Shown here piece after piece: positions 3,401-24,110 of a stretch of 64,000 nt of DNA. The DNA lies in contig CBHWCZ010000007.1 in NCBI GenBank assembly GCA_966112355.1, positions 22,752 to 86,751 on the forward strand, read 5' to 3'. The translations under genes were made by a program, and so were the position numbers. Numbering within the stretch: the stretch's first letter is position 1; each line of letters opens with the position of its first letter. Source of the DNA: an uncultured Polaromonas sp. GTDB lineage: Bacteria > Pseudomonadota > Gammaproteobacteria > Burkholderiales > Burkholderiaceae_C. The notes under the pieces are model-generated. The model worked only from the letters and a program-made list of their open reading frames with translations, ran no database searches and was not told the DNA's origin.

Positions 3401-4491
3401 TCAGGCGGCCGCAGCGGCTTTCTGGATTTCGCTGCGCTGTAAAAACGGTTGTGATTGCGCTTCCGATTGCTTCAGATGCCGCGCCTGCCGCTCCGCACGC
3501 GCCGTGCCGGGCGCTGACGGGGCGGCTGTCCGGCTGGCATCCAGCAGTGCGGCCAGGCAAGCGGGCCGGGCCCGCGCACCGCTGGCCACATAGTCGGCCA
3601 GCAGCGCGCCGCGGACTTCCTCTGCCGGCAAACTGCGCGCCACGGTCAGGTGCTCGAACAGCAGGTCCACCAGTTTTTCCAGTGCAAACTCGTGCGTCTT
3701 GCCCGTGGTGTGCCAGAGCCAGTCGCTGAAGTTCAGAAAATGCTCGAAGGCCGAGCCTGGTCCCAACAGCAGACGCAAGCTCGCCGCGAAGCGGCCGGAA
3801 TTGGCCACCAGATCCCAGTAGCGCGCAAAGCGCTGGATGCGCTGCATCGTGGCGAAATCCACCGTGGAGTTCTGCAGAATAGTGTAGGGCGTCTGCGGGT
3901 CATAGACCATGGCGAACTCGGCAGTATGGCGCGCGATCGGCGTGCCGCGCAGGCGCTTGAGGATGCCGAACTGGATCTCGTGCGGCGCCAGCGCATGCAG
4001 GCGGTCAAAGCCCTCGGCAAAACTCGCCAGCGTTTCACCGGGCAGCCCGAAGATCAGGTCGGCATGCACATGGGCCTGGCTTTCGGTGACCAGCCAGCGC
4101 AGGTTGTCGGCGGTCTTGACGTTGTCCTGGCGCCGCGAGATGCGCTGCTGCACCTCGGGGTTGAAGCTCTGGATGCCGACTTCAAACTGCAGCGAGCCCG
4201 CAGGAAACTGTGCGATCAGGGCCTTGAGCCGGTCGGGCAGGCTGTCGGGCACCACCTCGAAATGCACAAACAGCTCCGGCGGCAGGCCCGCGCGGTCGCC
4301 CCCGGCCTGGAGTTTGTCCAGGAAGAACTGCAGGATGCGCACCGAAAAATCGACCTTGAGGTTGAAGGTGCGGTCGACAAACTTGAAGTTGCGCGCGCCG
4401 CGTTCATACAGCAGCGCCATCTCGGCCATGAAGCGGTCGAGCTCGAAGGCCCAGGCGGTCTTGTCGAGCGCACTGAGGCAGAACTCGCACT
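3401..4491 (-). pseudogene. 3' part of interrupted B12-binding radical SAM gene
   Basis: Begins at (K)CEFCLSALDKTAW and continues FKFVDRTFN, FEVGIQSFN, DLIFGLPGE. Joined to 36980-37520 it gives a 1632-nt in-frame ORF (543 aa) with GCPFKCEFC restored. Confidence 0.95.
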
Positions 4492-4497
4492 CAAAGC
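4492..4497. other. 6-bp footprint/coupling sequence caaagc at the element's left junction
   Basis: Six bases that belong neither to the reconstituted host gene nor to the terminal inverted repeat. Confidence 0.85.
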
Positions 4498-4509
4498 TTA
4501 TGTTGAATT
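4498..4509 (+). repeat. Left terminal inverted repeat ttatgttgaatt
   Basis: 11/12 match to the reverse complement of 36968-36979 (ttatgtggaatt). Confidence 0.85.
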
Positions 4510-4685
4510 TTTTTGTTCACATTTATGCCACTACTCCTGTTTTTATTTTTCACGCAGAGCTTTAGTCAATTTCTGCTGTTCATGAACACAATTCCAGACT
4601 GCGATACAGCGGTCAGAGACTCGTGATCGCGTGCATGTTCCGTCCTACAGCATGGACAGGCAGTGAGATTTTGCTATTGCTATGA

Positions 4686-5087
4686 CTAATGACGAGCCGC
4701 GAGCGCTAACTGCTCAAGAAGGCTCTCTTCGTCGTCTCCGCCAATTCCCGTGATGCGAGTCACGATCTCACGTTCGACCGCCCATTGATAGACCCGCAAT
4801 AAGTCCCATAGTGCACTCTCGCTAACTGTCATCTCGTCTTTTTTTGTTCTTGGCTTGGCTGAACCAAGAACTAAACACATGACCAGCATCATGGGCGCAG
4901 CGATCGACGGCGCCGGTTCTACGTCATCCCCCTCTTCAAGCGAGCGAAGGTCGCGCGCAACAGATAAAAGCATGGGCTCTGTCAATGAGGCTGGAAGGGC
5001 ACCTTGCCTCCATTTCTTCTGGCGTAAAAAGTTAGATAGCTGCGCTAGGTCAGTTGGCTGCGTAGGGCGAAGAGTGCTCAGGCTCAC
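4686..5087 (-). CDS. Hypothetical protein (~133 aa)
   Basis: Open frame; GGAG RBS 7 nt before GTG at 5087; divergent from the XRE gene. Confidence 0.6.
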   Translation of the reverse strand: MSLSTLRPTQPTDLAQLSNFLRQKKWRQGALPASLTEPMLLSVARDLRSLEEGDDVEPAPSIAAPMMLVMCLVLGSAKPRTKKDEMTVSESALWDLLRVYQWAVEREIVTRITGIGGDDEESLLEQLALAARH

Positions 5088-5170
5088 TATGTTCTCCGGT
5101 AGATGTAGGAACTGCACTTTGCACCATAAAAGCGGGTGCATAAAGTAGTCTACAACAGGAAAGTCTGGGC

Positions 5171-5440
5171 ATGAAAAAGCCCCGGAACGAAAGCCTGCTC
5201 AGAGCGTTGGCAGCGGAAATCAAGAGCCTGCGAACCGGGCTCGGTGTTAGCCAGGAGGAAATAGCGCATCGGGCTGGGCTGAACCGCACGTTTGTAGGAA
5301 AACTAGAGGTCGCACAGACCCAGCCGTCCTTGACTGTGTTATTTCAGTTGGCTGATGCTCTTGAAGTGGCCCCTGTGGAGCTTGTTGCTAATATTGCCAA
5401 GCGTACAAAGAAGGAATCGCGGTCAGGGCATCACAGATAG
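5171..5440 (+). CDS. XRE-family HTH regulator
   Basis: IKSLRTGLGVSQEEIAHRAGLNRTFVGKLE...PSLTVLFQLADAL. Confidence 0.9.
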   Translation: MKKPRNESLLRALAAEIKSLRTGLGVSQEEIAHRAGLNRTFVGKLEVAQTQPSLTVLFQLADALEVAPVELVANIAKRTKKESRSGHHR

Positions 5441-5447
5441 AAGAGTG

Positions 5448-5469
5448 GGCCTCCGCGTTGAGGCCTTTT
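5448..5469 (+). terminator. Probable intrinsic terminator
   Basis: ggcctc-cgcgtt-gaggcc followed by tttt, just after the XRE stop. Confidence 0.55.
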
Positions 5470-5598
5470 CGCACATTGCTGCTGCGCAACTAGGACGGCA
5501 AGTTAGGCACTAGAAATCGTGACTCGCCCAATCCGTCATGTTGAACCCAAAAGGCAGCTCCCGAGACAAAGCGGTATTCCAGGAGTTCGAACTGGACG

Positions 5599-5615
5599 CC
5601 CAAAAGCAGACACTG
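5599..5615 (-). repeat. Partial copy (reverse orientation) of the cargo hairpin motif
   Basis: Minus strand reads cagtgtctgcttttggg, like gtctgcttttggcc at 23080; coincides with the intI breakpoint. Confidence 0.6.
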
Positions 5616-5708
5616 GCTATAGTGCAAATAGCGAATTCGCTCGCGCACCTGTTCCAACAAGCGGACAGACTTGAGTTCAGGGGCGCGGGGTTTTATGGAG
5701 CTGTACAT
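5616..5708 (-). pseudogene. intI: Integron integrase N-terminal remnant (31 codons)
   Basis: [20 protein letters not shown] matches the IntI start ([20 protein letters not shown] in IntI1); divergent from an attC array. Confidence 0.85.
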
Positions 5709-5831
5709 AACTGAATATTTGAACTGCATAGTTAGTGGAAGCCCAAGCTGCAAGCCAATCTCAGGGAGTTGTCATGTCTAGAATATCGAACACGAGCCAG
5801 TTTATCGAGCAGGTTTTGCTCTATACATTAC

Positions 5832-5838
5832 GCTAGGT
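5832..5838 (+). other. Candidate attI recombination core (variant GCTAGGT)
   Basis: Between intI remnant and first cassette ORF; one change from GTTAGGY, the complement expected from the first attC inverse core GCCTAAC. Confidence 0.45.
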
Positions 5839-5863
5839 GGTTGCCCTCCGGAAAGGACTTGCC

Positions 5864-6049
5864 ATGTCAGCAAAGCGAAAAGTGAAGGACGCACTGAGTG
5901 CGGTAGAAGACGCATTGCGCGCGTTGCAACGGGCTGCAGCGGTGGCCCCGGGTGAGCCAAACATTACTCGTGCAATTCAAGAGCTTCGTGATGCCGAGGC
6001 ACTTTTGGAGCGGGCTGCTCGAGAGGTCGGTCGCCTCGAGGCCCAGTAG
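5864..6049 (+). CDS. Integron cassette 1: small helical hypothetical protein (61 aa)
   Basis: AAGGA RBS, ATG 5864, stop 10 nt before attC. Confidence 0.7.
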   Translation: MSAKRKVKDALSAVEDALRALQRAAAVAPGEPNITRAIQELRDAEALLERAAREVGRLEAQ

Positions 6050-6059
6050 CCGATGAGTG

Positions 6060-6117
6060 GCCTAACCCATCATTCCAGCAGACTGCATTTGGCAGCCGCT
6101 GAATTCAAACGTTAGAC
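6060..6117 (+). other. attC site 1
   Basis: GCCTAAC ... CAAAC GTTAGAC, 58 bp, internal dyad gcagactgc/gcagccgc. Confidence 0.9.
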
Positions 6118-6122
6118 CCCCG

Positions 6123-7043
6123 ATGTCACTCATCCACGACATACAAGCTGCCGCAATCGCACAGGACTCCGACATCCCGACGCTGCTGCGGATGTGCAAG
6201 CTACTCGCGGCCCGAATCTCACACCAAGATTTCGCGGACTGGGTAGATCGCGAGTTGAACGGCTACCCGAGCATCAACGACTTGCCCGACTATCGCGTAG
6301 TTCGAGTGGACTGCTATGGTTCTTTCATAGGAACATTCGCCCGCGCCGACAAGTTGCAGATTCCGGTATCCGTACTTCCAAAGGAGCTTCAAGAGCAGTT
6401 CCGAAACGCCTATATGGGTAGCAGCGTCAGCGCGTACACGGCGCTCCTTTCAGGTGACAAGTCAGGTAGCGTTCAGGAACCCTGGCCAGTCGCACTTGCC
6501 GTGCACAACGCTTCAAAGCTGACTCCGGACATGCAGTGCGTCTCCGCGTGGAAGGAGATCCCAATAGGTGCGATCGTTCGCCTGATGGACTCAGTAAAGA
6601 CCCGCGTCCTCGGCTTTGCAATCGATCTGGAACGCGAAGCGCCGAACGCCGGTGAGCTGCCGATTGGAAGTCAACCACCTCTAAGCCGCGAAAAAATGAC
6701 ACAAATCTTCAATACCAATATCACGGGCAACGTCGGCAACGTCGCCAACGCCAGTTCTGGGTTCAGCCAGTCGTCCATCCTCGTGGAGCCAGGCAACTGG
6801 CAGTCGCTCCAATCCCGCCTGCTAGAACTTGGGCTCACGGCCGGAGACATCGAGGACCTCAAGGCCGATCTTGAGCGCGCAGCCGCCTTGGGAAGCCAAG
6901 AGGACAAAACGAAGACAGCGAGCACGTGGATCGGCCGCCTCGCCGGCAAGGCTGCTACCGGAGCAGCAGGCGTAGGCATTGAAGTAGCAGCAACGGGCGT
7001 TGCTAAGGCAATTGCCGCCTACCTTGGCCTCGCTGGGGCCTAA
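6123..7043 (+). CDS. Integron cassette 2: AbiTii-domain protein
   Basis: N-terminus LLRMCKLLAARI...WVDRELNGYP...LPDYR resembles AbiTii; stop codon lies inside the attC inverse core. Confidence 0.75.
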   Translation: MSLIHDIQAAAIAQDSDIPTLLRMCKLLAARISHQDFADWVDRELNGYPSINDLPDYRVVRVDCYGSFIGTFARADKLQIPVSVLPKELQEQFRNAYMGSSVSAYTALLSGDKSGSVQEPWPVALAVHNASKLTPDMQCVSAWKEIPIGAIVRLMDSVKTRVLGFAIDLEREAPNAGELPIGSQPPLSREKMTQIFNTNITGNVGNVANASSGFSQSSILVEPGNWQSLQSRLLELGLTAGDIEDLKADLERAAALGSQEDKTKTASTWIGRLAGKAATGAAGVGIEVAATGVAKAIAAYLGLAGA

Positions 7044-7114
7044 CCCTTCGCTCGAGCGGACTGCCACCGGCAAGGCGCTTGGGCGGCGTTAGCCCCGCAC
7101 CTCAAACGTTAGAG
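7038..7114 (+). other. attC site 2 (partly degenerate)
   Basis: GCCTAAC ccttcgctcgagcggac ... ctcaaac GTTAGAG; right arm pairs poorly. Confidence 0.85.
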
Positions 7115-7125
7115 CAGACGAAACC

Positions 7126-7563
7126 ATGCGGCGATTGTTCATCACATATCTACTCGTTCTAGTGTCAGGCGTTGTCCATGCAGTGGGACCGTTTGAAGGT
7201 CATTGGTTATATGCGCAACCCTGTGGGTGGCAGCACGGAGCCGAGCTTCGCCTACTGCAAACTGGTAGCGTCGTCAAAGGCTCTTGGAGCGACGGTCACC
7301 GTGTCAAAGTGTGGGGCGGCGAATTGCAAGGCAACGTTAGGGGAGGCAAGCTTTTCATCCGCTTTTGCAGTGATGGTGCGTGGGGAGACGAGTCGCACGT
7401 CTGCCCAGAACTCGGGTCTGAGTCAGCCTACTTCGTGCGTCAAGGGGAGGCTTTGGTTTGGTACACCAAGAAGGAAGAAGCGTTCGGGGAATACGTTACG
7501 TTGCATCGAATCGCGAAGGGGAAGCACTTACCCAAGGACAACAAGTGTCCGAACGAGGAATAG
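7126..7563 (+). CDS. Integron cassette 3: secreted hypothetical protein
   Basis: Signal-peptide-like N-terminus, 4 Cys; ORF fills the space between two attC sites. Confidence 0.8.
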   Translation: MRRLFITYLLVLVSGVVHAVGPFEGHWLYAQPCGWQHGAELRLLQTGSVVKGSWSDGHRVKVWGGELQGNVRGGKLFIRFCSDGAWGDESHVCPELGSESAYFVRQGEALVWYTKKEEAFGEYVTLHRIAKGKHLPKDNKCPNEE

Positions 7564-7630
7564 CTCTAACTTCTCCATCGAGTGGAGACGCAGGGCATGT
7601 CACGCGTAGCCCTGATTTCAACTGTTAGCC
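7564..7630 (+). other. attC site 3
   Basis: CTCTAAC (exact complement of the cassette-start core GTTAGAG) ... cagggc/gccctg stem ... GTTAGCC. Confidence 0.88.
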
Positions 7631-7683
7631 AGTTGAAATCCGCCCTACGCGAAATTTGGTTACCTGATATCGGTCGTTCGCCA

Positions 7684-7715
7684 ATGTCAGCTTCTGGCCC
7701 GATAGCGGCTGTCGA
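7684..7715 (+). repeat. Cargo hairpin motif copy H1
   Basis: atgtcagcttctggcccgatagcggctgtcga. Confidence 0.8.
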
Positions 7716-7734
7716 GACAAAGCGGAAATCCAAG

Positions 7735-7766
7735 TGTCTGAACTGGCCGCCATAAAGCAGACATTC
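7735..7766 (+). repeat. Cargo hairpin motif, diverged copy H1b
   Basis: tgtctg-aactggccgccataaag-cagacattc. Confidence 0.55.
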
Positions 7767-8147
7767 ACCAACGCTTGTCGACAACTCTGATGCCGGGCTC
7801 AGATACAACATATGTGGTCGCTCAAGTTTGACGTTTGAACGACTATGGCGAAAAACAGCTTGGGCGTCGCCGAAGCGCGCGAAAGAACCGGTGCCCAGAT
7901 CAATGACGGTTCTCGGTACGCCATCAAACAATTCAAGGTAGCTGTTGCCATCGCTCCCAGTCGTTCCTGAACCACCCAAGCCGAACGCCACCAGTTCCAG
8001 TGATGCAGCGCTTGAAGTTTGAGCCGGATTCCCGGGAGCTAAAGGTGCTGGCGGCCCCGCAATGGCAAGAGTCGCTATCGCAGCGTGACAGCCAGCTTTA
8101 TCAGCGTCTTGCGGGCGGCCCTGATCTCACGCCGTTCTGGCCAACTC

Positions 8148-8489
8148 TCACTTCGTTTGCTCGTTGCCGTAGGTCTTGGCCAGGTAATCCACGATCAGCG
8201 GAATGTCCGCATCGTCCACCGGCGCCTTGAATACAGTTTTCATGCGTTTGACCATGGCCTCCCAATATGGGCGTGCCGCTGTCGGTGGCTGGTACTGCAT
8301 GTATTCGGCCGAATGACAAGCCGCACAGATGGCCTGTGCCTTGGCGTAACCCGGCAGGCTGCTGGGCTTGAGCTGCACACCATCAGGTGGCAGGTCGATG
8401 GACTTGGACCCGGCATGGGCCAGGGCGGAGCCGGCCAGAAGCGCGGCCGTGATCAGGATTTTGTGTGCCAGTAGGTGGGACATGCGCAT
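8148..8489 (-). CDS. sorB: Sulfite dehydrogenase cytochrome c subunit
   Basis: Signal peptide, CAACH heme motif, YWEAMVKRM...FKAP; directly downstream of sorA with RBS. Confidence 0.85.
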   Translation of the reverse strand: MRMSHLLAHKILITAALLAGSALAHAGSKSIDLPPDGVQLKPSSLPGYAKAQAICAACHSAEYMQYQPPTAARPYWEAMVKRMKTVFKAPVDDADIPLIVDYLAKTYGNEQTK

Positions 8490-8494
8490 GCTCC

Positions 8495-9724
8495 TTAAAC
8501 AGCGGTGACTTTGACGGACTCGACCACATTGCGCATGTAGCCGGCGGGCTGCCACAGGGCCTCCATCGGCTGGCTTTGGCCCGAGCGGTTCCAGGCGCGT
8601 ACGCGCAAATCGTGGCTGCCTTTTTCTGGGGTGAAGGCGAAGGTGAACTCGCGAAAGGAGTAGCGACCCATGTCAGCACCCAGCCTGGCGCTGCGCCAAC
8701 TCTGACCACCGTCAGTGGAGTAAGCCACTTCTCGAACACCTTGCCCGCCATCAAAGGCGATGCCACGCACCACGGCCTGCTCGCCCGCCCGCACCCGACC
8801 ACCGTTTTGGACCGAAGTGATGAAGGAGCGCACATTGAATCGCCCAATAGGCCGCGTCGCTGCGGGTGCTGTCCCCGGCTCGACACAGGCACAGTCGTTG
8901 TCTGGAATGCGGTAGGCCGGCTTCATCCAGAAGCCCTCGAAGCTCTGGTCCACCACCTCGATTTCCGACAGGTGCTTGACCCAGTAGGTGCCGTAGTAGC
9001 CGGGCACGATCAACTTGACCGGATAGCCGTTGAGCAGCGGAATGTCTGCACCATTCATCTGGTAGGCGATCATCACTTCGCCATCCATCGCGTGGTTCAC
9101 ATCGATCGACTTGACGAAGTCGCCACCGCCAAACAGGGCCTGATCGAGGCCGTTGAAGGTCACCTCGCGCGCACTGTTCTTGAGCTCGGCGCGGGCCAGC
9201 ACATCCTTGAGCGCGACCCCCACCCAGCGCGCATTGCCCATAGCACCGTTGGAAAGCTGACCACCAGTGACGCGCGGCGAGAAATGGCCGCGGCTGTTGC
9301 CGGAGCACTGATTGACTGCCAGGTACTCGACGGGTTTGAACTGCGTCTTGAGATCGGCCAGAGTCAACTCGTAGGGCTTGCCCGCCGCGTTGCCACCAAT
9401 CTTGATTACATGCTTGTCCGCGTCAATCGTGGTGGGAATGCCGGCATTGTGATAGCGCACGAAGAAGGCGTCATTGGGCGTGATCAGGCCATCGTTGAAC
9501 ACCTCGAACGGCGTTTCCAGTTGTGGCGGCCGCGAGGTCAGCACAATCAGCGGGCGCTTTTCCGGGTAGGCAACCAGATTGCGCTTGCCGTTGACGAAAG
9601 GCAGCTCGACAACGGTGCCTTGCGCGAAAGCACTTCGACCGAAGGCTGCTGCGGCAAGGGCACCAGCGCCTCCGGCGAGAAGCCTGCGGCGCAGCAGGTG
9701 CTTGTTCTTGTGGCCGTCTGTCAT
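8495..9724 (-). CDS. sorA: Molybdopterin sulfite dehydrogenase, Tat-exported
   Basis: RRRLL Tat signal; RPPQLETP, NDAFFVRYH, QCSGNSR, NGYPVKLIVPGYYG. Confidence 0.9.
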   Translation of the reverse strand: MTDGHKNKHLLRRRLLAGGAGALAAAAFGRSAFAQGTVVELPFVNGKRNLVAYPEKRPLIVLTSRPPQLETPFEVFNDGLITPNDAFFVRYHNAGIPTTIDADKHVIKIGGNAAGKPYELTLADLKTQFKPVEYLAVNQCSGNSRGHFSPRVTGGQLSNGAMGNARWVGVALKDVLARAELKNSAREVTFNGLDQALFGGGDFVKSIDVNHAMDGEVMIAYQMNGADIPLLNGYPVKLIVPGYYGTYWVKHLSEIEVVDQSFEGFWMKPAYRIPDNDCACVEPGTAPAATRPIGRFNVRSFITSVQNGGRVRAGEQAVVRGIAFDGGQGVREVAYSTDGGQSWRSARLGADMGRYSFREFTFAFTPEKGSHDLRVRAWNRSGQSQPMEALWQPAGYMRNVVESVKVTAV

Positions 9725-9769
9725 GATTGTCTCCTTGTGGTTGGTGAAGTGAAAGTGGTTGGCAAAACG

Positions 9770-10372
9770 CTAACGGGGCGACTGGGCAGTCGCTACTGGT
9801 GAAAACGTGGCTTGAGCGACCGATAGCGCATGCTTTTTTTGCGCCACCAAGACCAGCGGCTTGCCGTCACGTGACGTCACCACCTGCCAGTACACATTGC
9901 CCCACCAGCCGTGGTCTTCGCTGAGCTTCACCGGCTGGTCAAAGGCGAACACGGTCACCATGCCGCCTTTTTCAAAAAAAGTGGTCAGGTGATAGACCAA
10001 ATGGCCTTCAATATCGCAAGGCCGCATCAGTTGCGGAAAGCCGGGAAGAGTCTGGGATTGGCCCAGCCCCAGATGCTCCAGGATTTTCCGGCCCTCCATG
10101 AAGTTGCCGCGCAGGGTTCGCTCGTAGTACTCGTGCTCAATCGCGCCGCGCACCAGCTCCGGAGGCCGCATCGCGAACACGGCACCCACGCCGGTGCCCA
10201 GCAGCAGCAAACCTGCTATCCCGCGCTGCACAGCAGGCCGTAATAGCCATCGGCTTTGGCGGAACAGACTGGCGGGCGGTTGACCCGGCGCGTAGGCCAG
10301 CGCCAATTCGGCGCGGGCGCGGAGATCAAATTCGTTGTCTTCGAAGGGCTTCAACTCGTTTGTTTCTTTCAT
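9770..10372 (-). CDS. Putative anti-sigma factor (single transmembrane helix)
   Basis: Follows an ECF sigma gene by 2 nt; hydrophobic segment IAGLLLLGTGVGAVFA. Confidence 0.55.
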   Translation of the reverse strand: MKETNELKPFEDNEFDLRARAELALAYAPGQPPASLFRQSRWLLRPAVQRGIAGLLLLGTGVGAVFAMRPPELVRGAIEHEYYERTLRGNFMEGRKILEHLGLGQSQTLPGFPQLMRPCDIEGHLVYHLTTFFEKGGMVTVFAFDQPVKLSEDHGWWGNVYWQVVTSRDGKPLVLVAQKKHALSVAQATFSPVATAQSPR

Positions 10373-10374
10373 GG

Positions 10375-10947
10375 TCAGGAGTCCTGGTTTCTGCGCAGCA
10401 CCGTGACCTTGCTGTCCTCGGCATAGTCCCCAGGCGCCTGCAGGTCTGTGGATCTCACCGGTATCATGGCCGCTTTCAGCGCATCGCGCGCCCGCGCCAA
10501 GCGCGACAGAACCGTGCCGGGTGCTACTTCCAGCGCCTCCGCCATCAGGGCGGTGGGCATGTCGTCAAAGTAATAGAGCACCAGCACTTCGCGGTGTATG
10601 GGCGCGATTTTTTGCAAGGCGCGCACCACATCTAGACGGTCGTCAATGCCGGACTCCGGCGCGGCGCGTGAGGCTGTATCCATAGCCAGCGCGTCGTTGT
10701 CATCCAGACAGAGCAGGCCGGGTGCCATGTGGCGCAGCGCGCTGCGGCGCATGATCTGGAACAGCCAGGCGCGGGCGAGTTCAGGTTCCCGTAGCTGGTT
10801 GCGGTATTTCCACGCGCTGGTGAAACAGTCCTGCACCACATCCTCGGCCACGGCGCGTGAGCCACTCATGGCCCAGGCGCTGCGCATCAGGAAGCGGTAG
10901 TGGTCACGCACCCATTGGTTGTAGCGGGACTCGGCAGTTTCGAACAT
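10375..10947 (-). CDS. ECF RNA polymerase sigma factor
   Basis: AEDVVQDCF, RAWLFQI, GTVLSRLARAR. Confidence 0.92.
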   Translation of the reverse strand: MFETAESRYNQWVRDHYRFLMRSAWAMSGSRAVAEDVVQDCFTSAWKYRNQLREPELARAWLFQIMRRSALRHMAPGLLCLDDNDALAMDTASRAAPESGIDDRLDVVRALQKIAPIHREVLVLYYFDDMPTALMAEALEVAPGTVLSRLARARDALKAAMIPVRSTDLQAPGDYAEDSKVTVLRRNQDS

Positions 10948-11032
10948 GCGTATAAGAGCAGTAGTTCAGGGCGCTCATTCCATTCCCCTGATAAATAGTC
11001 ACAGGGGTTTACCCGCAGACCCAGAGGCGTGG

Positions 11033-11407
11033 TCAGCCACCGCCCCGGACCGCCCCCAGTGCCGGATAACCACCTGGCTCTGGGTTGGGCCCGTGTCGTA
11101 AGACCGCCATGCGCCCGCGCATCGCAGCGATTTCCACGGTCTGGCTGGCAATGATGTCCTCGGCAATCTGACGCACCAGCGGGTCGCGTCCGTGTATCAG
11201 CACCAGCCGCGCCATGTCCACCGCCCCCTCGTGGTGGGGAATCATCATCGCCAGAAAGTCTGCATCCGGGTTGCCGGTGTAGCCCGGCCCGTGCATGTCC
11301 TGCATCATGCGGGCCATGCCGGTGTCCATGTCGACTTCAAAGCGACTGGCCGGAGGCGGGTGACCTCCCGCCAACCCTTGTGCGTGGTGGTTACTGTGGT
11401 CGGTCAT
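11033..11407 (-). CDS. DUF305 / CopM-like metal-binding protein
   Basis: DADFLAMMIPHHEGAVDMA ... IIASQTVEI; ATGA overlap with the upstream gene. Confidence 0.85.
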   Translation of the reverse strand: MTDHSNHHAQGLAGGHPPPASRFEVDMDTGMARMMQDMHGPGYTGNPDADFLAMMIPHHEGAVDMARLVLIHGRDPLVRQIAEDIIASQTVEIAAMRGRMAVLRHGPNPEPGGYPALGAVRGGG

Positions 11408-12819
11408 GCAGTCTGCCCATTGCTGCCGGGCCGGACATAGACCAGGTTGATGCTCTTCTTGTTGCGCAATTCGCCTGACGGCAGTTTGAGTGCGCCCAGC
11501 GGAATCTGGGTGATGAGTTTGGGCTCCAGCGGTGATGACACATCGAATGCGGAGCACACCACCTGCCCTGCGTTGGGGGTTCCGGGCAGTTCGTCCTGTT
11601 CATGCGCCACGTAGAGCAGGTTGTTGGCCGGGTTGGTCCAGATTCCATGGGCCTCGCGGCCACCGGTGTAGACCATGCCCACGACCTTTTGCTGAGCCAC
11701 GGGGACCGAGCGGTCGATGATGGCCAGGCGGCTGGAGGCAGCGCCGTTCGGGCCACCGTCGTCGACGCGCGCCAGACTCATGTAGGTCACCTGGCCACGG
11801 GCATTGTCCACAAACTCCAGGTGGTTGGGGCGTGCCAGTTCACCCAGGGCAATCGTGCTCAACACAGCACCCGGGTCTTTGACCGACACGATCGAGACCG
11901 CATCAGCCAGCTTGTGCGACAGCCACATCTGGTTGCCGTCCGGCGAGAGTTTTTGGAACGGCGTGAAGGCAGGTTTGTCCTGACTGCTCAGGTCCACAAG
12001 GCGCAAGCGTTTCGGGCGTGAATGGCCTTTCGCGTCGGCGTTGACCTGCAGGATCTCGAGCTGTGCGGTTTTCTGGCTGATGACAAAGGCCAGCGCGCCG
12101 TCTTTGGAAAACCAGACCTGGGCCGGGCCGTTGAGCGTGGGGATGTACGCGCGAACAGCTAGCGCGGGGATGCCGGTCGGACTGGTCAGCTGCTGGGTGG
12201 CCTGCGCCACGTCGATGATGGCGATGCGGTCCTCACCGCGGAGGGTGACCCATAACTCCTTGCCGTTACGGGTAAAGGTCGGCTCATGCGGCTCACGTCC
12301 CAGCAAGATGCCACTGGACAACCGCTCCGGGTTGGTGGTGGCGCCAGCCTGTGGATTGGCCACATTGCCCACCACGCGCCGGTTCACCGCGTCAATCAGG
12401 TAAATGTTGCTGCTGCCGCGGCCCGAGGTGGCCAGCAGTGTGCCGTCCGGGTTGGGCACTGCGCCGTGGGCGTCAATGCAGCCGTGGTACAGGGGCTTGT
12501 GAATCATGGCGGCATGGGTGGGCATAACGCCGCCGGTGACAAACCGAAACGGCGGCCGTGCTTCTTCGTCAAAGCTGGTGAGGTTGATGGTGGTGTCCAC
12601 CGTATTGCTGGCAGGATTGATCACGCTGATGGTGTTTGAATCCTCGTTGGTGATGAAGACACGGTCCACCGGTGCGATGTCGGGTCCAGCGGATATTCCC
12701 ATCACTGGTGCAGGTTGCGCTGCAGCTGGTGCCACCGCCCAAGGCGCGGCCGCGACGGCGGGTAGCGCCGCAGCGGCTTTCAGGAAGTCGCGACGCGAGT
12801 CATTGAGAAATTCAGTCAT
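11404..12819 (-). CDS. Tat-exported YncE/YVTN-like beta-propeller protein
   Basis: SRRDFLK Tat motif; VFITNEDSNTISVI; repeated xHE/xHG blades. Confidence 0.8.
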   Translation of the reverse strand: MTEFLNDSRRDFLKAAAALPAVAAAPWAVAPAAAQPAPVMGISAGPDIAPVDRVFITNEDSNTISVINPASNTVDTTINLTSFDEEARPPFRFVTGGVMPTHAAMIHKPLYHGCIDAHGAVPNPDGTLLATSGRGSSNIYLIDAVNRRVVGNVANPQAGATTNPERLSSGILLGREPHEPTFTRNGKELWVTLRGEDRIAIIDVAQATQQLTSPTGIPALAVRAYIPTLNGPAQVWFSKDGALAFVISQKTAQLEILQVNADAKGHSRPKRLRLVDLSSQDKPAFTPFQKLSPDGNQMWLSHKLADAVSIVSVKDPGAVLSTIALGELARPNHLEFVDNARGQVTYMSLARVDDGGPNGAASSRLAIIDRSVPVAQQKVVGMVYTGGREAHGIWTNPANNLLYVAHEQDELPGTPNAGQVVCSAFDVSSPLEPKLITQIPLGALKLPSGELRNKKSINLVYVRPGSNGQTA

Positions 12820-12963
12820 GAGTTCTTTCGAAAGTTGAAAAATGGAGTTGCAAAAGTGCTGGCAAAGTACGCTCTGGCGTAAACCGGCTGCAAGGTCAGC
12901 CGCCCTCGTGATTCGCGCCAATGATGGTCTGATTAATTCGATGAATTGGGCGCGGTCACGCAG

Positions 12964-13815
12964 TCAGCGCGGCGTGTCGAGCTGTCGGTAGACCTCGCCG
13001 GACACCCGCGCCAGTTCGGCCTTGTCGGCGTCGGCCGAAATCGCATAGCCGAAGGGACCATTGACCCAGTAGAAAACATTGACGCCGCCTTCCCGGGCAA
13101 AGCGGAAGGCTGTTTCCTGATTCTTCTGGCCTGGCGCTGTAGCGCTCACACCACTGACCTCATTTGAGACATACAGCGTCAGCTTGGCGCCGGCGTTGTC
13201 GTGGTACATGAACTGCGCGACCGGCCCGTTGTCGCCCGGCAACAACCGGCCACCGTCGAGGGCGTAGCCCAGCGTCTGCAGATGGGGCGGTTTCATGGTC
13301 GCACCCATGCGCTTGGACAGCCAGGCCACCAGTTGGTCTTCATGGTCGGCGCTGACTTCAACGGGCCGCCGTACGTCAGGGCTGTAGACCGCATGGGCAA
13401 TCGCCGCGCGCTGCGCAAACCCTGTGGCCGACGCGACGGCGATGGCGCTGGGCGTGCGCTGGGCCACCATGCCAGCACCTGGCTCGGAGCCCAGACCGCC
13501 GCGCAGGCCCCAGCCTGCGGCGCCACTGACCACGGCAATCGCGATGCCAGCGGCCATGCGCTGCAGATACCAGGGCGTGCGTGGCCTGGCAGCCTGCCGG
13601 ATCCGCAGCGGCAGCGATTCTTCGAGCACTGGATTGAAGAGTGCGCGCAGTTCGCGCTTTTGGGTCAGATAGCTTTCGACGCGTTGCGCCTCTTCGGGGC
13701 GACGGGCCAGATACGCTTCGATCTCGCGCTGACGCTCCGGCGTGAGTTGACGATCCACGTAAGCGTGCAATTCAGCTTCGGTGACGGGTGTTGGGGGAGG
13801 TGTGACTGGGTTCAT
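12964..13815 (-). CDS. Transmembrane anti-sigma factor (RsiW-like)
   Basis: ELHAYVDRQL, AHAVYSPDVRRPVEV, LVAWLSKR, GGRLLP. Confidence 0.88.
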   Translation of the reverse strand: MNPVTPPPTPVTEAELHAYVDRQLTPERQREIEAYLARRPEEAQRVESYLTQKRELRALFNPVLEESLPLRIRQAARPRTPWYLQRMAAGIAIAVVSGAAGWGLRGGLGSEPGAGMVAQRTPSAIAVASATGFAQRAAIAHAVYSPDVRRPVEVSADHEDQLVAWLSKRMGATMKPPHLQTLGYALDGGRLLPGDNGPVAQFMYHDNAGAKLTLYVSNEVSGVSATAPGQKNQETAFRFAREGGVNVFYWVNGPFGYAISADADKAELARVSGEVYRQLDTPR

Positions 13816-13825
13816 GACGGTCTGT

Positions 13826-14350
13826 TCATTTAACGACTTTGAGTCGAACGGGATCATGTTGGCCTTCCATGAGAGAACGCAAGCGCTCACGACCACGCGA
13901 GAGGCGCGACATGACCGAGCCGATGGGGATACCCAGGGCAGCGGCCACTTCGGCGTAACTCATGTCTTCCAGCGCGATCAGCAAAATGATCTCCCTTTGC
14001 TCTACCGGCAGCTTCTCCAGAGCGGCCTGCAAATCCATGACGGCAAGGCTCTCACCCTGGGTCGCTGCGACCGGCAATTCGGGGGTGTCGTCATCGAGGA
14101 CCACGGTGTGCAGCTTGGGCCTGCGGACACCGTCCACGTGCAGGTTATGCATCATGCCGAACAACCACGCCCGCATATCCGAGACACCTCGCCACAGCGC
14201 CGATTTGGCCAGTGCCCGCTCCAGCGTGTCTTGCACCAGGTCATCGGCGTCCTCGCGGTTGCCCACCAGCGCCCGCGCGTAACGGCGCAGGCGCGGCACC
14301 CAGGTCAGCAGGTGGTCGTCACCGTTCTCGTCGTAGAGGTCGTTTTGCAA
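13826..14350 (-). CDS. ECF RNA polymerase sigma factor
   Basis: LRRYARAL, ADDLVQDTLERA, GSVMSRLSRGR. Confidence 0.92.
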   Translation of the reverse strand: MQNDLYDENGDDHLLTWVPRLRRYARALVGNREDADDLVQDTLERALAKSALWRGVSDMRAWLFGMMHNLHVDGVRRPKLHTVVLDDDTPELPVAATQGESLAVMDLQAALEKLPVEQREIILLIALEDMSYAEVAAALGIPIGSVMSRLSRGRERLRSLMEGQHDPVRLKVVK

Positions 14351-14390
14351 ACTGCCGCCTGGTTATTTTGCCGGTCTGAACGTCAACCCA

Positions 14391-14786
14391 TCATTCCTTG
14401 ATGATGTGCCAGACGTCCTTGAAGTTGTCGCCGGTGCGGTCACCCGCTTTCTGGTCAGCTTTGTAGAAGTACAGTGGCTTACCTTTGTAGGCGAGCTGGC
14501 GCGCGCCATCGTCGCGCGTCACGACACTGTAATCGCCAAAGGGCTGATCGGTGGTTGCCATCAGGGGCGGCCACAGGCCGGCGCAGGGACCATTGCAAAC
14601 GCTTTTGCCGCTGCCGGCCTTGTCGTTGTCAAAGGTGTAGAGCGTCATGCCATTGGATGCCACCAGCGCACCGCCAGACATTTTGGCGGGTGCATCGGCC
14701 GCAACGGCAGATATGCTGACAACCATGGAGGCCGCGCTGATGGCAAGGGTTGCCAGAAAAAGCGGGATTTTCATACTGTTCTCCAA
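14391..14786 (-). CDS. Secreted repeat protein (COG4315/Lipoprotein_15-like)
   Basis: GMTLYTFDND, CNGPCAGLWPP, KPLYFY..D. Confidence 0.85.
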   Translation of the reverse strand: MENSMKIPLFLATLAISAASMVVSISAVAADAPAKMSGGALVASNGMTLYTFDNDKAGSGKSVCNGPCAGLWPPLMATTDQPFGDYSVVTRDDGARQLAYKGKPLYFYKADQKAGDRTGDNFKDVWHIIKE

Positions 14787-14810
14787 TGAGTGTGTGTGGC
14801 GGGTTGGCGA

Positions 14811-15245
14811 TCAGTACGCGGCAACTGACAGCTTGGGATCAATCTGCCAGGTTTCGCTGACGATCTTGCCCAGTCGGAAGGTCAGCACGTAGCGAACCTT
14901 GATGGGGGCCTTGCCTTCGAACTGTACGTTGGCAGACACTGTCGAGCCGCTGGTGTTGGCAGACTCTTCCAGCTTGTCGACGCTGACTTTCAGCGGACCC
15001 TGCGACTTGGTGAACTTTTCCCACACGCCGCGAATCGCGTCCGGACTGGCGTAAGTGCCGTCCAGCGGACCACCCACCCAGTTGAACTGGGCCTGGTCCG
15101 CGTAGCCGCGCATGACGATGGACAAATCGCCCGAGCCGATGGCCTGGAAGTGGGTCTTGGCGTCATCGGCCGGGGCAGCCATGGCACCGGTGGCGGTAAA
15201 CAGCACAGCGGCGGCGCAAGCGGTAAGGGAAAGGGTTTTGAACAT
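14811..15245 (-). CDS. Secreted SnoaL/NTF2-like protein
   Basis: Signal peptide; HFQAIGSGDL...WVGGPLDGTY...ETWQI. Confidence 0.7.
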   Translation of the reverse strand: MFKTLSLTACAAAVLFTATGAMAAPADDAKTHFQAIGSGDLSIVMRGYADQAQFNWVGGPLDGTYASPDAIRGVWEKFTKSQGPLKVSVDKLEESANTSGSTVSANVQFEGKAPIKVRYVLTFRLGKIVSETWQIDPKLSVAAY

Positions 15246-15374
15246 GAAAAGCTCCTGGTAAGGTAAGACGAGTGAAGTTGCGGTGAGGCTTGAACTTGGT
15301 CGCAGCAGCCAATTGCTGCTGTCATGGAGGTAGACGGTTCGCAATGCCGGTTTATTCCAGAAGCCTGAAAATAA

Positions 15375-16532
15375 TTAACCAATCAGAGCAAACACCCACC
15401 GGTTGATCAGCGCACCGCCCACCACCAGCCAAGTGAAGAGGGTCAGCGCCAGCAAGAGAGGCTTGACGCCGGCTTTGCGTATGGAGGATATGTGGGTGGC
15501 AAGACCCAGCGCTGCCATCGCCATGGCCAGCAAACCGGTGTCGACCTCGGTCGTTACAGCCACGACACTTGGCGGCAGCAGGTTCAACGAGTTGAACAGC
15601 ACCACACCGACAAAGGCAAAGGCGAACCAGGGCACAGCCAGCTTGGGCTGGATGAGCGCCCCAAGACGTACAGTGTGCTCATGGGCAGCTGGTGCCGGGG
15701 CCATTCGCACGGTGCGCCTGGCGTCGTCCCGCGCCAGCCAGGCCGATAGCATGATGAGAAAGGGCGCCAGCATCATCACGCGCACCATCTTGGCGATGAC
15801 AGCCGTGTCGGCCGCGTGGGGGCCTACCGAGCGCGCTGCAGCCACCACCTGGGCCACCTCGTGAATGGTGGAGCCGACATAGATGCCGAAGCCGTCAGCG
15901 CCGCCCGGAACCAGCTGCCACTGGCGATTGAGCTCAAACAGCAGCGGGTACAAGAAGATGGCGATGGTGCCGAACACCACCACGGTGGCCACGGCGACCG
16001 TGACCTGTTCGGCGCGCGCTTTCACCACCGGCTCAGCGGCCATCACGGCAGCAGCGCCGCAAATCGAGCTGCCGGCACCAATCAACATCACCGTCTTGCG
16101 ATCCATGCCGAGGCAGCGGATGCCAATGACGCATGCCAGCGCAAACGTCGAACCCAGGACCAACGCATCGGTGGCCACGCCCGCCAGGCCGACGTGGCCA
16201 ATATCCTGCACCGTAAGCCGCAAGCCGTACAGCACCACACCCAGGCGCAGCAGGTTTTGTTTGGAAAAGTTGACCCCGGCGCCGCTCACTCTGGCCACAC
16301 GCGGATAAGCCGTGTTGCCGACCAGCATGCCCAGCACGATGGCGAGTGTCAGGGCGCTGAACCCGTGGTCCTGCAGCCAGCCGATGCGGCTCAGCGCGAT
16401 CGCGGCCGCAGCCAGAGCACCGCTAATTACCAGGCCAGGCAGCAGGCGCAGCAATGGGTCCATCGCATTCCTGACGGCCCGGCCAGACGCAGGGGCTTCG
16501 AAGGAAGGTCGGGAGGGTGCGGCGGTGGTCAT
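15375..16532 (-). CDS. yeiH: YeiH-family membrane exporter
   Basis: LLRLGVVLYG, GSSICGAAAV, GSTIHEVAQV, KMVRVMML; divergent LysR partner. Confidence 0.9.
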   Translation of the reverse strand: MTTAAPSRPSFEAPASGRAVRNAMDPLLRLLPGLVISGALAAAAIALSRIGWLQDHGFSALTLAIVLGMLVGNTAYPRVARVSGAGVNFSKQNLLRLGVVLYGLRLTVQDIGHVGLAGVATDALVLGSTFALACVIGIRCLGMDRKTVMLIGAGSSICGAAAVMAAEPVVKARAEQVTVAVATVVVFGTIAIFLYPLLFELNRQWQLVPGGADGFGIYVGSTIHEVAQVVAAARSVGPHAADTAVIAKMVRVMMLAPFLIMLSAWLARDDARRTVRMAPAPAAHEHTVRLGALIQPKLAVPWFAFAFVGVVLFNSLNLLPPSVVAVTTEVDTGLLAMAMAALGLATHISSIRKAGVKPLLLALTLFTWLVVGGALINRWVFALIG

Positions 16533-16659
16533 GGTGTTCTCCATCAGGTTCGGTTCGTCAGGGTCGAATGTAGAGTTCTGTAATCTATCCGTCCAACAGC
16601 TTGTTTGAGTAACATATAGCTGTTTAATCAATATACAAAGCACGCAGGGGAACTCGACC

Positions 16660-17586
16660 ATGGATGTACTGCGCCTGACATTGCGTCAACTGCAAATTTT
16701 TGTGGCGGTGGCCCAAACCGGCAGCACGACGGCAGCCAGCACGCAAATTGCCCTGTCGCAGTCGGCGACCAGCGCGGCCGTCAAGGAGCTGGAGCGTCTG
16801 CTGTCGCTCCACCTGTTCGACAGGGCAGGTAAACGCCTGCTGCTCAACGACAACGGACGAGCTCTGCTGCCGCGGGCGCAGGCCCTGCTGGACGGCGCGG
16901 CCGGGATCGAGCAGATGTCCCGTGATGGCATGGCGCAGTCCCAGTCGCTGCGGATTGGCGCTAGCACCACGATTGGTAACTACGTGTTGCCCCGGCTTCT
17001 CAGGCAGTTTCTGCGTGGACGGCACCAAGACATCGCCACCAGTTGGCATTCAAGGATTGCCATAAACAACACTGAAGCGATATGCGACGCAGTGGACCGG
17101 TTCGAACTCGATGTGGGGCTGATAGAAGGCCCCTGCCACCATACGTCACTCATAGTCACCCCATGGATGCAGGACGAGCTGGTGGTGGTGGGGCACCCGA
17201 CTCTTGCGAATAAATCGAAGCAAGGGCGGGTGTCACTGAAAACATTACGCGATTGGGTATGGCTGCTGCGCGAGGCGGGCTCGGGTACCCGAGAGGCGAC
17301 AGACCAATTGCTACTGCCTCATCTCACTTCCTACCGCCACAGCATCGAACTAGGAAGCTCAGAGGCGATTAAGCACTCGGCTGCAGCAGGACTTGGAGCG
17401 GCATGCCTTTCGCGATGGGTCGTAAGCGACATGCTAGAGGCAAAACTCTTGAAGCGTGTCAATACCACGCTGCCGAAAATGACCCGCCAGTGTTATACGG
17501 TGATTCATCGAGGCAAACAACATACGCCAGCGTTACTGGACTTTATCGATCAAGCAACATCGCTTACAAAATCTAGAGGGAAATAG
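16660..17586 (+). CDS. yeiE: LysR regulator, YeiE-like
   Basis: LTLRQLQIF HTH; GASTTIGNY, LREAGSGTR; divergent from yeiH. Confidence 0.8.
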   Translation: MDVLRLTLRQLQIFVAVAQTGSTTAASTQIALSQSATSAAVKELERLLSLHLFDRAGKRLLLNDNGRALLPRAQALLDGAAGIEQMSRDGMAQSQSLRIGASTTIGNYVLPRLLRQFLRGRHQDIATSWHSRIAINNTEAICDAVDRFELDVGLIEGPCHHTSLIVTPWMQDELVVVGHPTLANKSKQGRVSLKTLRDWVWLLREAGSGTREATDQLLLPHLTSYRHSIELGSSEAIKHSAAAGLGAACLSRWVVSDMLEAKLLKRVNTTLPKMTRQCYTVIHRGKQHTPALLDFIDQATSLTKSRGK

Positions 17587-17614
17587 AAATGTTCTGCGAA
17601 AAGTGAAGCGGGGG

Positions 17615-17840
17615 ATGCTTCGTATCCTTGATTCGTGGATCGAGGGACTTCGACTCGGTCCAGTCGCCTATAGAACTCACACCATTCGCAAAACTAAAGC
17701 ATCCTTGATTTACTGTCGAACGAAGAATATTCGACTTGTCCAATCGCTTCTGGGTCATACCAAACTCTAAAACACCGGGCGGTGCCTCGGCATTGAGGTA
17801 GCAGAAGCCTTGTAGCTTTCATAGTAGACAGAGATTTGCC
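17615..17840 (+). pseudogene. Small tyrosine recombinase, C-terminal remnant
   Basis: YRTHTIRKTKASLIYCRTKNIRLVQSLLGHTKL*NTGRCLGIEVAEAL* (HxxR and LGH boxes); stops at 17768 and 17813; catalytic Tyr position reads Cys. Confidence 0.85.
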
Positions 17841-17901
17841 AGATTGAACTTGGCTGCTGGTTGAATGATTTTTGACTTCCAGTTACAGGTCGTTCCGGTG
17901 C

Positions 17902-17928
17902 GTCCGCTTCTGGCCCGGATGCGGAAAC
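17902..17928 (+). repeat. Cargo hairpin motif copy H2
   Basis: gtccgcttctggcccggatgcggaaac, preceded by ggtcgttc. Confidence 0.8.
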
Positions 17929-18069
17929 TTTGTGCTCCGTCACCAGCATGGTGAAGAAGCCCTTCACCCCGGGCGCGCCGATTTTGGGAGGGTGCTGCAT
18001 TTGCCACCAGGTCGATAAAGCCTGTAGAGTCCAAATGCGCAAAGACGCGCCAACATTCAGGAGACTGCC

Positions 18070-18444
18070 ATGTTCAAAAGCGATACCTGCTGCACCTTGG
18101 TGCCCTACTTCGAAGTCGAGGAATCACAACTCGCCGCCTTCAAAGCACTCGGGCCTAAATTTGTCGAGAAGACACGCACGGAAGCGGGATGCGTGCACTA
18201 CGCGTTCTCTTACAGCGGCCACACAGCCCATTGCCGAGAAGGTTATGTCAACGCGGAAGCAGTTCTCGCACATCTCCAAAATGTCGGCGAGCTGCTTGGT
18301 GAGGCGCTCAAGATAGCCAAGATCACTCGACTCGAGGTCCATGCACCAGCAGCAGAGATCGAGAAACTCAAGGGTCCTATGGAGTCATTGAATCCGCAGT
18401 TCTTTGCCCTCGATCCAGGCATCCGACGCAGCAGCGAAGACTAA
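18070..18444 (+). CDS. ABM-domain putative monooxygenase
   Basis: GGAG RBS; TRTEAGCVHYAF ... REGY..AEAVLAH. Confidence 0.8.
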   Translation: MFKSDTCCTLVPYFEVEESQLAAFKALGPKFVEKTRTEAGCVHYAFSYSGHTAHCREGYVNAEAVLAHLQNVGELLGEALKIAKITRLEVHAPAAEIEKLKGPMESLNPQFFALDPGIRRSSED

Positions 18445-18470
18445 CCCATCAGTCCATCGGATCGCCCACG
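18441..18470 (+). other. Left half of an attC-like site (truncated)
   Basis: ctaacccatcagtcca is 15/16 identical to 6062-6077 of attC1 and contains the ORF stop; no matching GTTRRRY follows. Confidence 0.6.
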
Positions 18471-18506
18471 CCAAATCGAAAGGCTCACAAGCGGTCATTT
18501 AACTGC

Positions 18507-18540
18507 GGCCGCTTCTGGCCCGATTACGGCTGCCGAGACA
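18507..18540 (+). repeat. Cargo hairpin motif copy H3
   Basis: ggccgcttctggcccgattacggctgccgagaca; preceded by aagcggtcatt. Confidence 0.8.
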
Positions 18541-18708
18541 TTGCGGACGTTATCCGCTTCAGTAATTTCACATTTTCATCGTCGGTTCCCTTGATTTGGG
18601 CGATGAGGCGGTCCCTCCCGACGGCGATTTCAGCGGCTACAAGCGCACAGTAAACTGAGACGGCCGAATTGCGGCTAATTACAAAAGACAATGAGAAGGA
18701 GACAAGCC

Positions 18709-20094: not shown

Positions 20095-20158
20095 TCCAAT
20101 TAATGGGCACGTAGACTTTCGCGAGTCTCGTGCCCAACCCGTTACCGGTCATTCGCGT

Positions 20159-20188
20159 ATGTCGGCTTCTGGCTACGAAAGCGGACAC
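20159..20188 (+). repeat. Cargo hairpin motif copy H4
   Basis: atgtcggcttctggctacgaaagcggacac, preceded by ggtcattcg. Confidence 0.8.
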
Positions 20189-23079: not shown

Positions 23080-23106
23080 GTCTGCTTTTGGCCCGATAGC
23101 GGACAC
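23080..23106 (+). repeat. Cargo hairpin motif copy H5
   Basis: gtctgcttttggcccgatagcggacac. Confidence 0.8.
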
Positions 23107-23929: not shown

Positions 23930-24077
23930 GTAATGACTCTACTTCGGTGAAAAATAATGTTAATTATATTTAACATTTCTGCGATTTGTTAAATATATTT
24001 GACAAACCAAATGGGCGAGAAAACGTGCTGACCAGCACAGAGATCGCTGCCGAGGAGCCGACACCAGTCACTTACCA

Positions 24078-24110
24078 ATGTCCAGTTCTGGCCCGAAGGC
24101 CGTCGACACA
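24078..24110 (+). repeat. Cargo hairpin motif copy H6
   Basis: atgtccagttctggcccgaaggccgtcgacaca. Confidence 0.7.

Follow-up and report, generated by a model that had tools for sequence, protein, structure and literature searches.

Positions 5616-7630 of a 64,000-nucleotide (nt) stretch of DNA from an uncultured Polaromonas sp. (GenBank assembly GCA_966112355.1, contig CBHWCZ010000007.1), which we call the window, hold what is left of an integron. The surviving parts are codons 1-31 of the integrase gene intI, a whole attI site with a 20-codon leader open reading frame (ORF), and three gene cassettes that read away from intI. The locus is very probably the front-end leftover of a chromosomal-type integron of a Comamonadaceae lineage, which has lost its integrase and is carried as passive cargo in a genomic island. 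Its features, in coordinates of the window, are as follows.

5616-5708, minus strand: fragment A, the intI stub, which comprises codons 1-31 of the integrase gene and ends in RYLHYS
5709-5838, plus strand: attI region, core GCTAGGT at 5832-5838, with C at 5833 where relatives have T
5774-5836, plus strand: leader ORF of 20 codons, MSRISNTSQFIEQVLLYTLR, with a Shine-Dalgarno-like GGGAG upstream and its TAG stop inside the attI core
5833-6111, plus strand: cassette 1, with the attI core and the G of R' in attC1 as its limits; ORF 5864-6049, 61 aa, helical
6060-6117, plus strand: attC1, canonical, full-length covariance match (48.4 bits, E 4e-9)
6112-7108, plus strand: cassette 2; ORF 6123-7043, 306 aa, AbiTii-family abortive-infection protein
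7038-7114, plus strand: attC2, canonical, full-length covariance match (51.1 bits, E 1e-9)
7109-7624, plus strand: cassette 3; ORF 7126-7563, 145 aa, secreted-looking, with an N-terminal signal-peptide-like segment
7564-7630, plus strand: defective third site, with its R boxes in place (R'' CTCTAAC, R' GTTAGCC) but its L boxes unpaired
7603-7651, no strand assigned: 22-nt inverted repeat, in which 7603-7624 pairs with 7630-7651 (19/22), with the third site's R' box at its centre

The original prediction had recognised here the first 31 codons of an IntI-like gene, and the start coordinate that it gave is exact. The 31-residue peptide has an NCBIfam match, to positions 8-30 of the 337 in NF011946, 'integron integrase' (E 4.5e-6). 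By tblastn it is 73% identical to residues 9-30 of IntI1 and 72% identical to residues 6-34 of the intact IntI of a related locus, L009 (E 4.7e-9), so that the proposed comparison with integron integrases came out in favour of the gene. The similarity to IntI ends exactly at 5616, after HYS, and the same frame continues into unrelated sequence. When all 64 kb of the window were searched by tblastn, with IntI1 and three relatives as queries, no complete intI came up, only two fragments, of which the stub is one. Class 1 integrons are recognised by a 5'-conserved segment, attI1 and IntI1, which are not those of this locus, and the 73% identity of the stub to IntI1 extends over 22 aa only.

The attI region is shared with a group of related loci. 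The 20-mer GAGCAGGTTTTGCTCTATAC, which lies between the stub and the first ORF, was found in 13 loci in a search that covered one genome per species, all of them Burkholderiales (Rhodoferax, Polaromonas, Hylemonella and metagenome-assembled genomes). BLAST added the Polaromonas plasmid pH1NP1, making 14 relatives in total. Both the 20-mer and a core of the form ATTAC-G(T/C)TAG are common to the window and these 14 loci. Window positions 5615-5837 align with the 5' end of intI and the attI of L009 over 224 nt (E 8.7e-30). In the BLAST comparison with plasmids, class 1 integrons matched at attC1 only, and the attI region belongs to the Comamonadaceae lineage. The window differs from the relatives at the crossover triplet. 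The conserved ...CTCTATACATTAC is followed by GTT in 13 of the 14 relatives, mostly as GTTAGGC, and by GCTAGGT in the window; the reading of the putative core as GCTAGGT instead of GTT was therefore exact. In the class 1 system, recombination of attI1 carrying GCT with a wild-type attC occurs at an unaffected frequency (PMC2811028). Because GCT is tolerated in class 1 attI1, the core is no evidence of a dead attI, and by this analogy it would not be disabling. It should be added that recognition of an attI site is specific to its own integrase (PMC2811028).

The T>C change in the core is synonymous in the leader ORF (CGT>CGC), and an ATG-started equivalent of this ORF occurs in 11 of the 14 related attI sites (loci L007-L019, L001). 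Class 1 attI1 contains ORF-11, a short ORF with its own ribosome-binding site inside attI that ends at the cassette junction. The leader ORF resembles ORF-11 in principle and could couple translation into the first cassette. The two are unrelated in sequence, and here the stop is the TAG of the attI core.

We scored the attC sites with a home-made covariance model, not that of IntegronFinder, built from 11 sites that all lie outside the window: nine from relatives, together with those of aacA34 and blaIMP-14 from a class 1 integron. Covariation within this set supports the R-box and L-box pairing that we imposed: 79% of the cells are paired, 10 pairs show double changes, and none of 500 shuffles reaches the observed value. 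The model generalises: it finds 10 attC sites of relatives outside the training set, and 118 kb of unrelated metagenome DNA gave hardly any matches. When the full window was searched with filters disabled, attC1 and attC2 were recovered at exactly the predicted ends, while the next-best match (14.6 bits, E 0.4) is at background level. The bottom strand of attC1 folds into a hairpin of -12.4 kcal/mol (z -3.15) with a bulged G on its 3' arm. The fold energy of attC2 alone is not unusual (z -0.33). A GTTAGC inside attC2 (7088-7093) is part of its L' box, and an attC of L009 has the same L'-GTTAGC-CAAAC-GTTAG layout. An end of attC2 at this internal GTTAGCC (7088-7094), which gives the best local pairing, was rejected in favour of 7114, since the relatives keep GTTAGC in L', the covariance model takes 7114 and the cores of cassette 3 match. 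Those cores are indeed exact complements, as had been noticed before: GTTAGAG at 7108-7114 and CTCTAAC at 7564-7570.

The attC1 type is also found in clinical material. The attC of the aacA34 cassette in the class 1 integron of plasmid pEC732_IMP14 is 85% identical to attC1 over 55 nt, and this likeness shows that such sites circulate in clinical class 1 arrays, even though the gene, the attI and the integrase there all differ from those of the window.

The third site behaves differently. It gave no covariance match at E<=10 in the window search, and a local search returned 7 bits, from the R boxes only and on the wrong strand. Its unconstrained minimum-free-energy fold consists of two local hairpins in which R'' is not paired with R'. 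The 5' half, TTCTCCATCGAGTGGAGAC, and the 3' half, CCCTGATTTCAACTGTTAGCC, are each like halves of attC sites of the family but are mutually non-complementary, and no close homologue of the site was present among 60 fetched loci. We read this as a damaged terminal site that marks the end of the array. Thus, of the claim that three ORFs are each followed by an attC, and of the covariance scoring and bottom-strand folding proposed to check it, the outcome is positive for the first two sites (with the hairpin of attC1 standing out in energy and that of attC2 not) and negative for the third, whose R boxes stay unpaired.

Cassette 2 encodes the one cassette protein of clear family, matching Pfam PF18864 (E 6e-47) and PADLOC AbiTii (E 4.6e-41). 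The protein of cassette 1 has a weak match to DUF7273 only, and the same gene is called in a metagenome contig; its homologue in Variovorax has no attC there. The protein of cassette 3 has no match in Pfam, NCBIfam or PADLOC. One of the two cleanly excisable cassettes is a predicted anti-phage gene, AbiTii, which fits integron cassettes as a reservoir of defence genes.

The array lies inside a larger element.

4498-36980, no strand assigned: GInt-type genomic island of 32,483 bp, with cargo that includes the integron remnant
30376-36796, minus strand: ginABCD-like operon at the right island end, encoding a 419-aa tyrosine recombinase, recombinase-like proteins of 682 aa and 733 aa, and a fourth gene product of 303 aa

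The GC fraction of the island is 0.572, against 0.643 in the flanks and 0.415 in an AT-rich end at 4498-4685. The island splits a gene for a B12-binding radical-SAM/DUF4080 protein into 3401-4497 and 36981-37520 (both minus strand), at CPF|ECEFC in the CxxxCxxC iron-sulfur motif, into which it would have inserted. Its junctions, ...gcactcAAAgctt... and ...ataatGAAgggg..., have only (A/G)AA in common. The first gin-like gene is a clear integrase by Pfam, NCBIfam and PHROG, and the second and third carry catalytic-type C-terminal motifs (HxxR and ...H..Y) and have plasmid homologues annotated as site-specific integrases. A Sphingobium plasmid has an operon of the same four-gene layout, whose genes 3 and 4 are 36-40% identical to those of the island. 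The fourth gene (30376-31287, minus strand) matches the small fourth gene of the Sphingobium operon over its N-terminal 130 aa. It overlaps the third by 14 nt, as does the homologue on that plasmid, and it has an ATPase/kinase-like extension (AAA_33, PHROG ATPase).

GInt islands consist of three tyrosine recombinase genes and a small fourth gene at one end, the cargo, and a short AT-rich far end (PMC5385486). Our island resembles them in this tripartite layout, with a putative gin operon, and in its insertion, presumably site-specific, into a gene. It differs in its target, a radical-SAM gene of which a paralogue is carried, in the fusion of the fourth gene to an ATPase/kinase-like domain, and in its flanking repeats. 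We class the carrier as a putative GInt-type island by layout, its likeness to the studied Pseudomonas gin genes being one of architecture, and its flanking repeats of 2-3 nt, where the GInt paper gives imperfect direct repeats of 10-11 nt as attL and attR (PMC5385486), fit the assignment less well. Judged from that architecture, the island would move by its own ginABCD-like recombinases via a circular intermediate. The idea that the array has been made mobile by another recombinase system is borne out as to location, inside a 32.5-kb island with such an operon, while the mobility itself is deduced from the layout of the genes.

Two further features, 12.3 kb to the right of the stub, bear on how intI was lost.

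17917-18060, minus strand: intI fragment B; IntI residues 58-85 of the relative secure, residues 35-57 degenerate
18061-18555, plus strand: ABM (quinol-monooxygenase-like) cassette; ORF 18070-18444, and a degenerate 117-nt attC-like site at 18439-18555 that includes a copy (c4) of an interspersed repeat

Fragment B has the same orientation as the stub and lies directly against the start of the ABM gene and cassette. The piece found by tblastn (18000-17917, minus strand) reads MQHPPKIGAPGVKGFFTMLVTEHKVSAS, compared with MRHPSTMGAPEVEAFLTMLATERRVSAS in the relative (61% identity, E 1.2e-5). By spacing, the fragment extends to about 18060, which is the residue right after the stub, and it would then comprise about codons 32-82, or residues 35-85, approximately, of the relative's IntI. 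Joined together, A and B form one colinear domain against the IntI N-terminal profile with 71.9 bits, compared with 41.5 and 23.1 bits separately. The letters at the breaks are ACTG|GCTA and TCAG|GAGA, and both fragments abut the 3' end of a repeat copy. The attC-like site of the ABM cassette scores 14.3 bits (E 0.48), and its R''-L'' half, GACTAACCCATCAGTCCATCGG, resembles attC1. In metagenome contigs, an ABM homologue of 87% identity forms a true cassette, whose attC scores 49 bits. In one such metagenome locus (L052, 824-1303) the ABM gene is a canonical cassette followed by a PIN/HicB pair. The island without the insert, i.e., the left repeat copy (c1) joined to the ABM cassette, had no match in the metagenomes searched.

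Taken as a whole, the locus is a real integron remnant of the type known as CALIN (attC sites in clusters that have no integron integrase), an ordinary genomic relic that is well preserved. By our home-made model it carries two or more attC sites on the same (plus) strand, 920 nt apart, and there is no full intI gene in the 64-kb window, where the CALIN definition asks for none within 4 kb (PMC4889954). Of the parts of a complete integron, an attI beside the start of intI and cassettes in the opposite direction are present, and the full intI is not, only codons 1-31 and a second fragment of about 50 codons. The locus is like other CALIN (PMC4889954) in having two or more attC sites on one strand in a small array, no nearby intI, and cassettes other than resistance genes. 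No recognisable intI pseudogene is found near 95% of CALIN (PMC4889954). Unlike most of them, this locus still shows directly that it derives from a full integron, because it keeps the 5' end of intI and a complete attI. Speaking against the overall reading, a simple consensus scan of 5400-7900 found no sigma-70-like promoter upstream of the cassettes (non-consensus promoters being outside such a scan), and the failure of the third site in the model turns three cassettes into two clean ones and one with a damaged end. The element is of a known kind. The original prediction is partly supported, and we make three corrections to it, namely that intI was probably split, that the GCT core would not be disabling and that the third site is defective.

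Because IntI is absent, the array cannot rearrange itself and would be inert. An integrase acting in trans, a resident one in the original prediction, could still excise cassette 2 by attC1 x attC2 recombination, since two canonical attC sites flank it. Cassette 1 could probably be excised via attI x attC1, for which the cognate integrase would be needed at attI. The suggestion does not extend to cassette 3, whose excision is unlikely because it ends in a defective site. These expectations follow from the state of the sites. The contigs of public runs in which the locus occurs showed neither excision joints nor excised cassettes, although rare variants are lost from contigs.

How the array came to its present state can be explained in several ways. 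The original prediction had intI truncated. An integron remnant that answers the CALIN definition is indeed present, but intI was probably split by a rearrangement and not simply trimmed, because fragment B, which starts about where the stub ends, adjoins another cassette 12.3 kb away. That one recombination event made the split, at codon 31/32, is a tentative reading to which we give slightly less than an even chance. An integron has the order B-A, and the window has A, then 12.3 kb, then B, in the same orientation; the simplest single event to yield such a permuted order would be a Campbell-type crossover within intI that joins a 12.45-kb circle to the island. On the circular DNA, fragment B, fragment A, attI, the cassettes and the sorAB...LysR genes would have been contiguous. 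Several observations tell against this. IntI residues 35-57 are barely recognisable in fragment B, and the exact right end of the fragment depends on spacing and one profile alignment. The junctions have just G|G in common and indicate no known recombinase. An unsplit intI was not seen in the contigs of the public runs. Alternatively, A with cassettes 1-3 may be the remnant of one integron and B with the ABM cassette that of another, each truncated separately by deletions beside repeats, and the end of A and the start of B may agree by coincidence. This would account for the unrecognisable residues 35-57, for the greater divergence of B from relatives (61%, compared with 72% for A), and for an attC-like site after ABM that is of another type than attC1-3. 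Loss or truncation of intI is also common in this attI lineage, with the full gene in only 1-2 of 13 loci. However, A ends at residue 34 of the relative, and B, secure for 58-85, fits residues 35-57 by spacing, so that the two give one profile match of 71.9 bits. Two independent breaks within about five codons of a 340-codon gene have a chance of a few per cent, and A and B share their orientation. We consider two separate remnants doubtful, and less probable than a single split.

The array might also be still in use. A complete IntI elsewhere in the same genome would then shuffle the cassettes, and the locus would be a satellite array and not a relic. About half of CALIN are in genomes that encode IntI (PMC4889954), and attC1, attC2 and attI are in good shape. 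But the 64-kb window has no intI, the terminal site is damaged, the contigs gave no joints of excision or rearrangement, with the limit on rare variants already stated, and attI is specific for its own integrase (PMC2811028); we regard active use as unlikely. Insertion of cassettes by an integrase at a secondary, non-att site, so that there never was a full integron, is a documented way of making CALIN (PMC4889954). It is refuted here by a bona fide attI, conserved with 14 relatives, and by 31 intI codons in the canonical divergent arrangement directly upstream, and we find it hardly credible for this locus. The reading of a decapitated integron carried as passive cargo stays the one that we prefer.

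The relatives of the attI show how common this state is. The locus is like the Comamonadaceae integrons (L007-L019; pH1NP1, which is L001) in its attI, its leader ORF and its attC family (GCCTAAC...CAAACGTTAG). Among the 13 genomes that share the attI 20-mer, a full intI is kept only in L009 and probably L015; it is truncated in L008 and L013, and at least seven have attI and cassettes without any intI. The intI of pH1NP1 is truncated too. Since only 1-2 of the 13 loci keep intI, this suggests that decapitated arrays are a common state of this attI lineage in these betaproteobacteria. In pH1NP1 (L001, 3646-3909), intI is interrupted by a 264-bp element, seemingly an insertion like a miniature inverted-repeat transposable element (MITE), whose inverted ends start with GGGGTC(G/A)CTTCAGAAAACGG and look Tn3-family. 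The sequence that cuts intI at codon 31 in the window is a different one. Plasmid 1 of Polaromonas JS666 (L002, 5002-5628) has two strong attC sites and no annotated intI, which makes it another CALIN. An attC cluster that has no integrase seldom reveals where it came from; by keeping the stub and attI, this locus documents the passage from a complete integron through loss of intI to a CALIN. It would also be an example of a relic carried onward by an unrelated recombinase system, that of a GInt-type island. Current understanding is unchanged by it, and we regard the locus as a tidy example that holds no surprise.

The repeats that border the two intI fragments belong to one family. A 59-nt direct repeat flanks the array (5554-5612 and 7705-7763) and is part of a family of seven copies, all on the same strand and all inside the island. 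Copies range from 25 to 110 nt, with long forms of about 110 nt, share the hairpin core GTCnGCTTCTGGCCCGAnAGCGGAC, and lie after plus-strand ORFs and at module boundaries.

5500-5612, plus strand: repeat c1, abutting the intI break at the stub; 59-nt core 80% identical to c2, 114 nt at 68%
7653-7763, plus strand: repeat c2, left boundary of the sorAB-LysR module
17871-17924, plus strand: repeat c3, right boundary of the sorAB-LysR module, abutting fragment B
18492-18547, plus strand: repeat c4, inside the ABM attC-like site
20137-20184, 23080-23102 and 24060-24174, plus strand: remaining copies of the family, inside the island

The module boundaries are visible in other islands. In L049, a related island in comM, homology covers 7716-16573 (89%) and begins within c2, with no integron piece there; in L059 and L060 homology covers 15375-17915 and stops at c3, just before fragment B. 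We suggest, as a rather remote prospect that we rate below active use of the array, that the repeats c1-c7 are not passive but delimit exchangeable cargo modules, and that the piece of integron with the cut intI was captured by the GInt-type island as a 12.45-kb circle through them. Under that proposal c1, c2 and c4 may be decayed long attC sites. If it were true, it would open a way for cassette arrays and adjacent chromosomal genes to pass from one island to another without IntI.

Other identities for the repeat were tried and rejected. Transposon or MITE ends do not agree with a 59-nt repeat that is direct and not inverted, lacks a target duplication and has seven same-strand copies over 20 kb. 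Coding sequence was discarded for mismatches without codon periodicity, and a structured RNA or known RNA family for the lack of covariation and of an Rfam match. Nor is the core specific to integrons: 28 unrelated metagenome contigs contain this hairpin amid unrelated flanks and without attC sites, and the 13 attI relatives all lack it. The c2 region (7631-7800) had no BLAST match against plasmids.

Several other genes of the island deserve mention. Between the LysR gene and c3 (17603-17770, plus strand) lies a 55-aa C-terminal fragment of a tyrosine recombinase (...HTIRKTKAS...LLGHTKL, then a stop). At the AT-rich end there is a divergent pair, a 133-151-aa protein without a known family (4686-5141, minus strand) and an XRE-type helix-turn-helix (HTH) regulator (5171-5440, plus strand). 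The former has 67 homologues, mostly in Comamonadaceae metagenomes, and other islands contain the two genes as one unit, in either orientation. One of these is L049 (587-790 onward), which has the same pair and the sorAB-LysR genes and is inserted in comM (Mg-chelatase-like) and not in a radical-SAM gene. Beside the gin-like operon, on the strand opposite to the interrupted gene, 28680-30317 (plus strand) encodes a full-length paralogue of the interrupted radical-SAM gene (61-68% aa identity), which may act as a built-in substitute for the disrupted target, or may have been picked up as a target from an earlier host. Defence-type cargo includes a 1004-aa AAA_21/SMC-like ATPase with a Ppl-like C-terminus (24812-27826, minus strand), which adjoins a DUF2026 gene (27823-28452, minus strand), and a helicase (20335-23025, plus strand) that is a full-length match to the PADLOC candidate system PDC-S53 (1327 bits).

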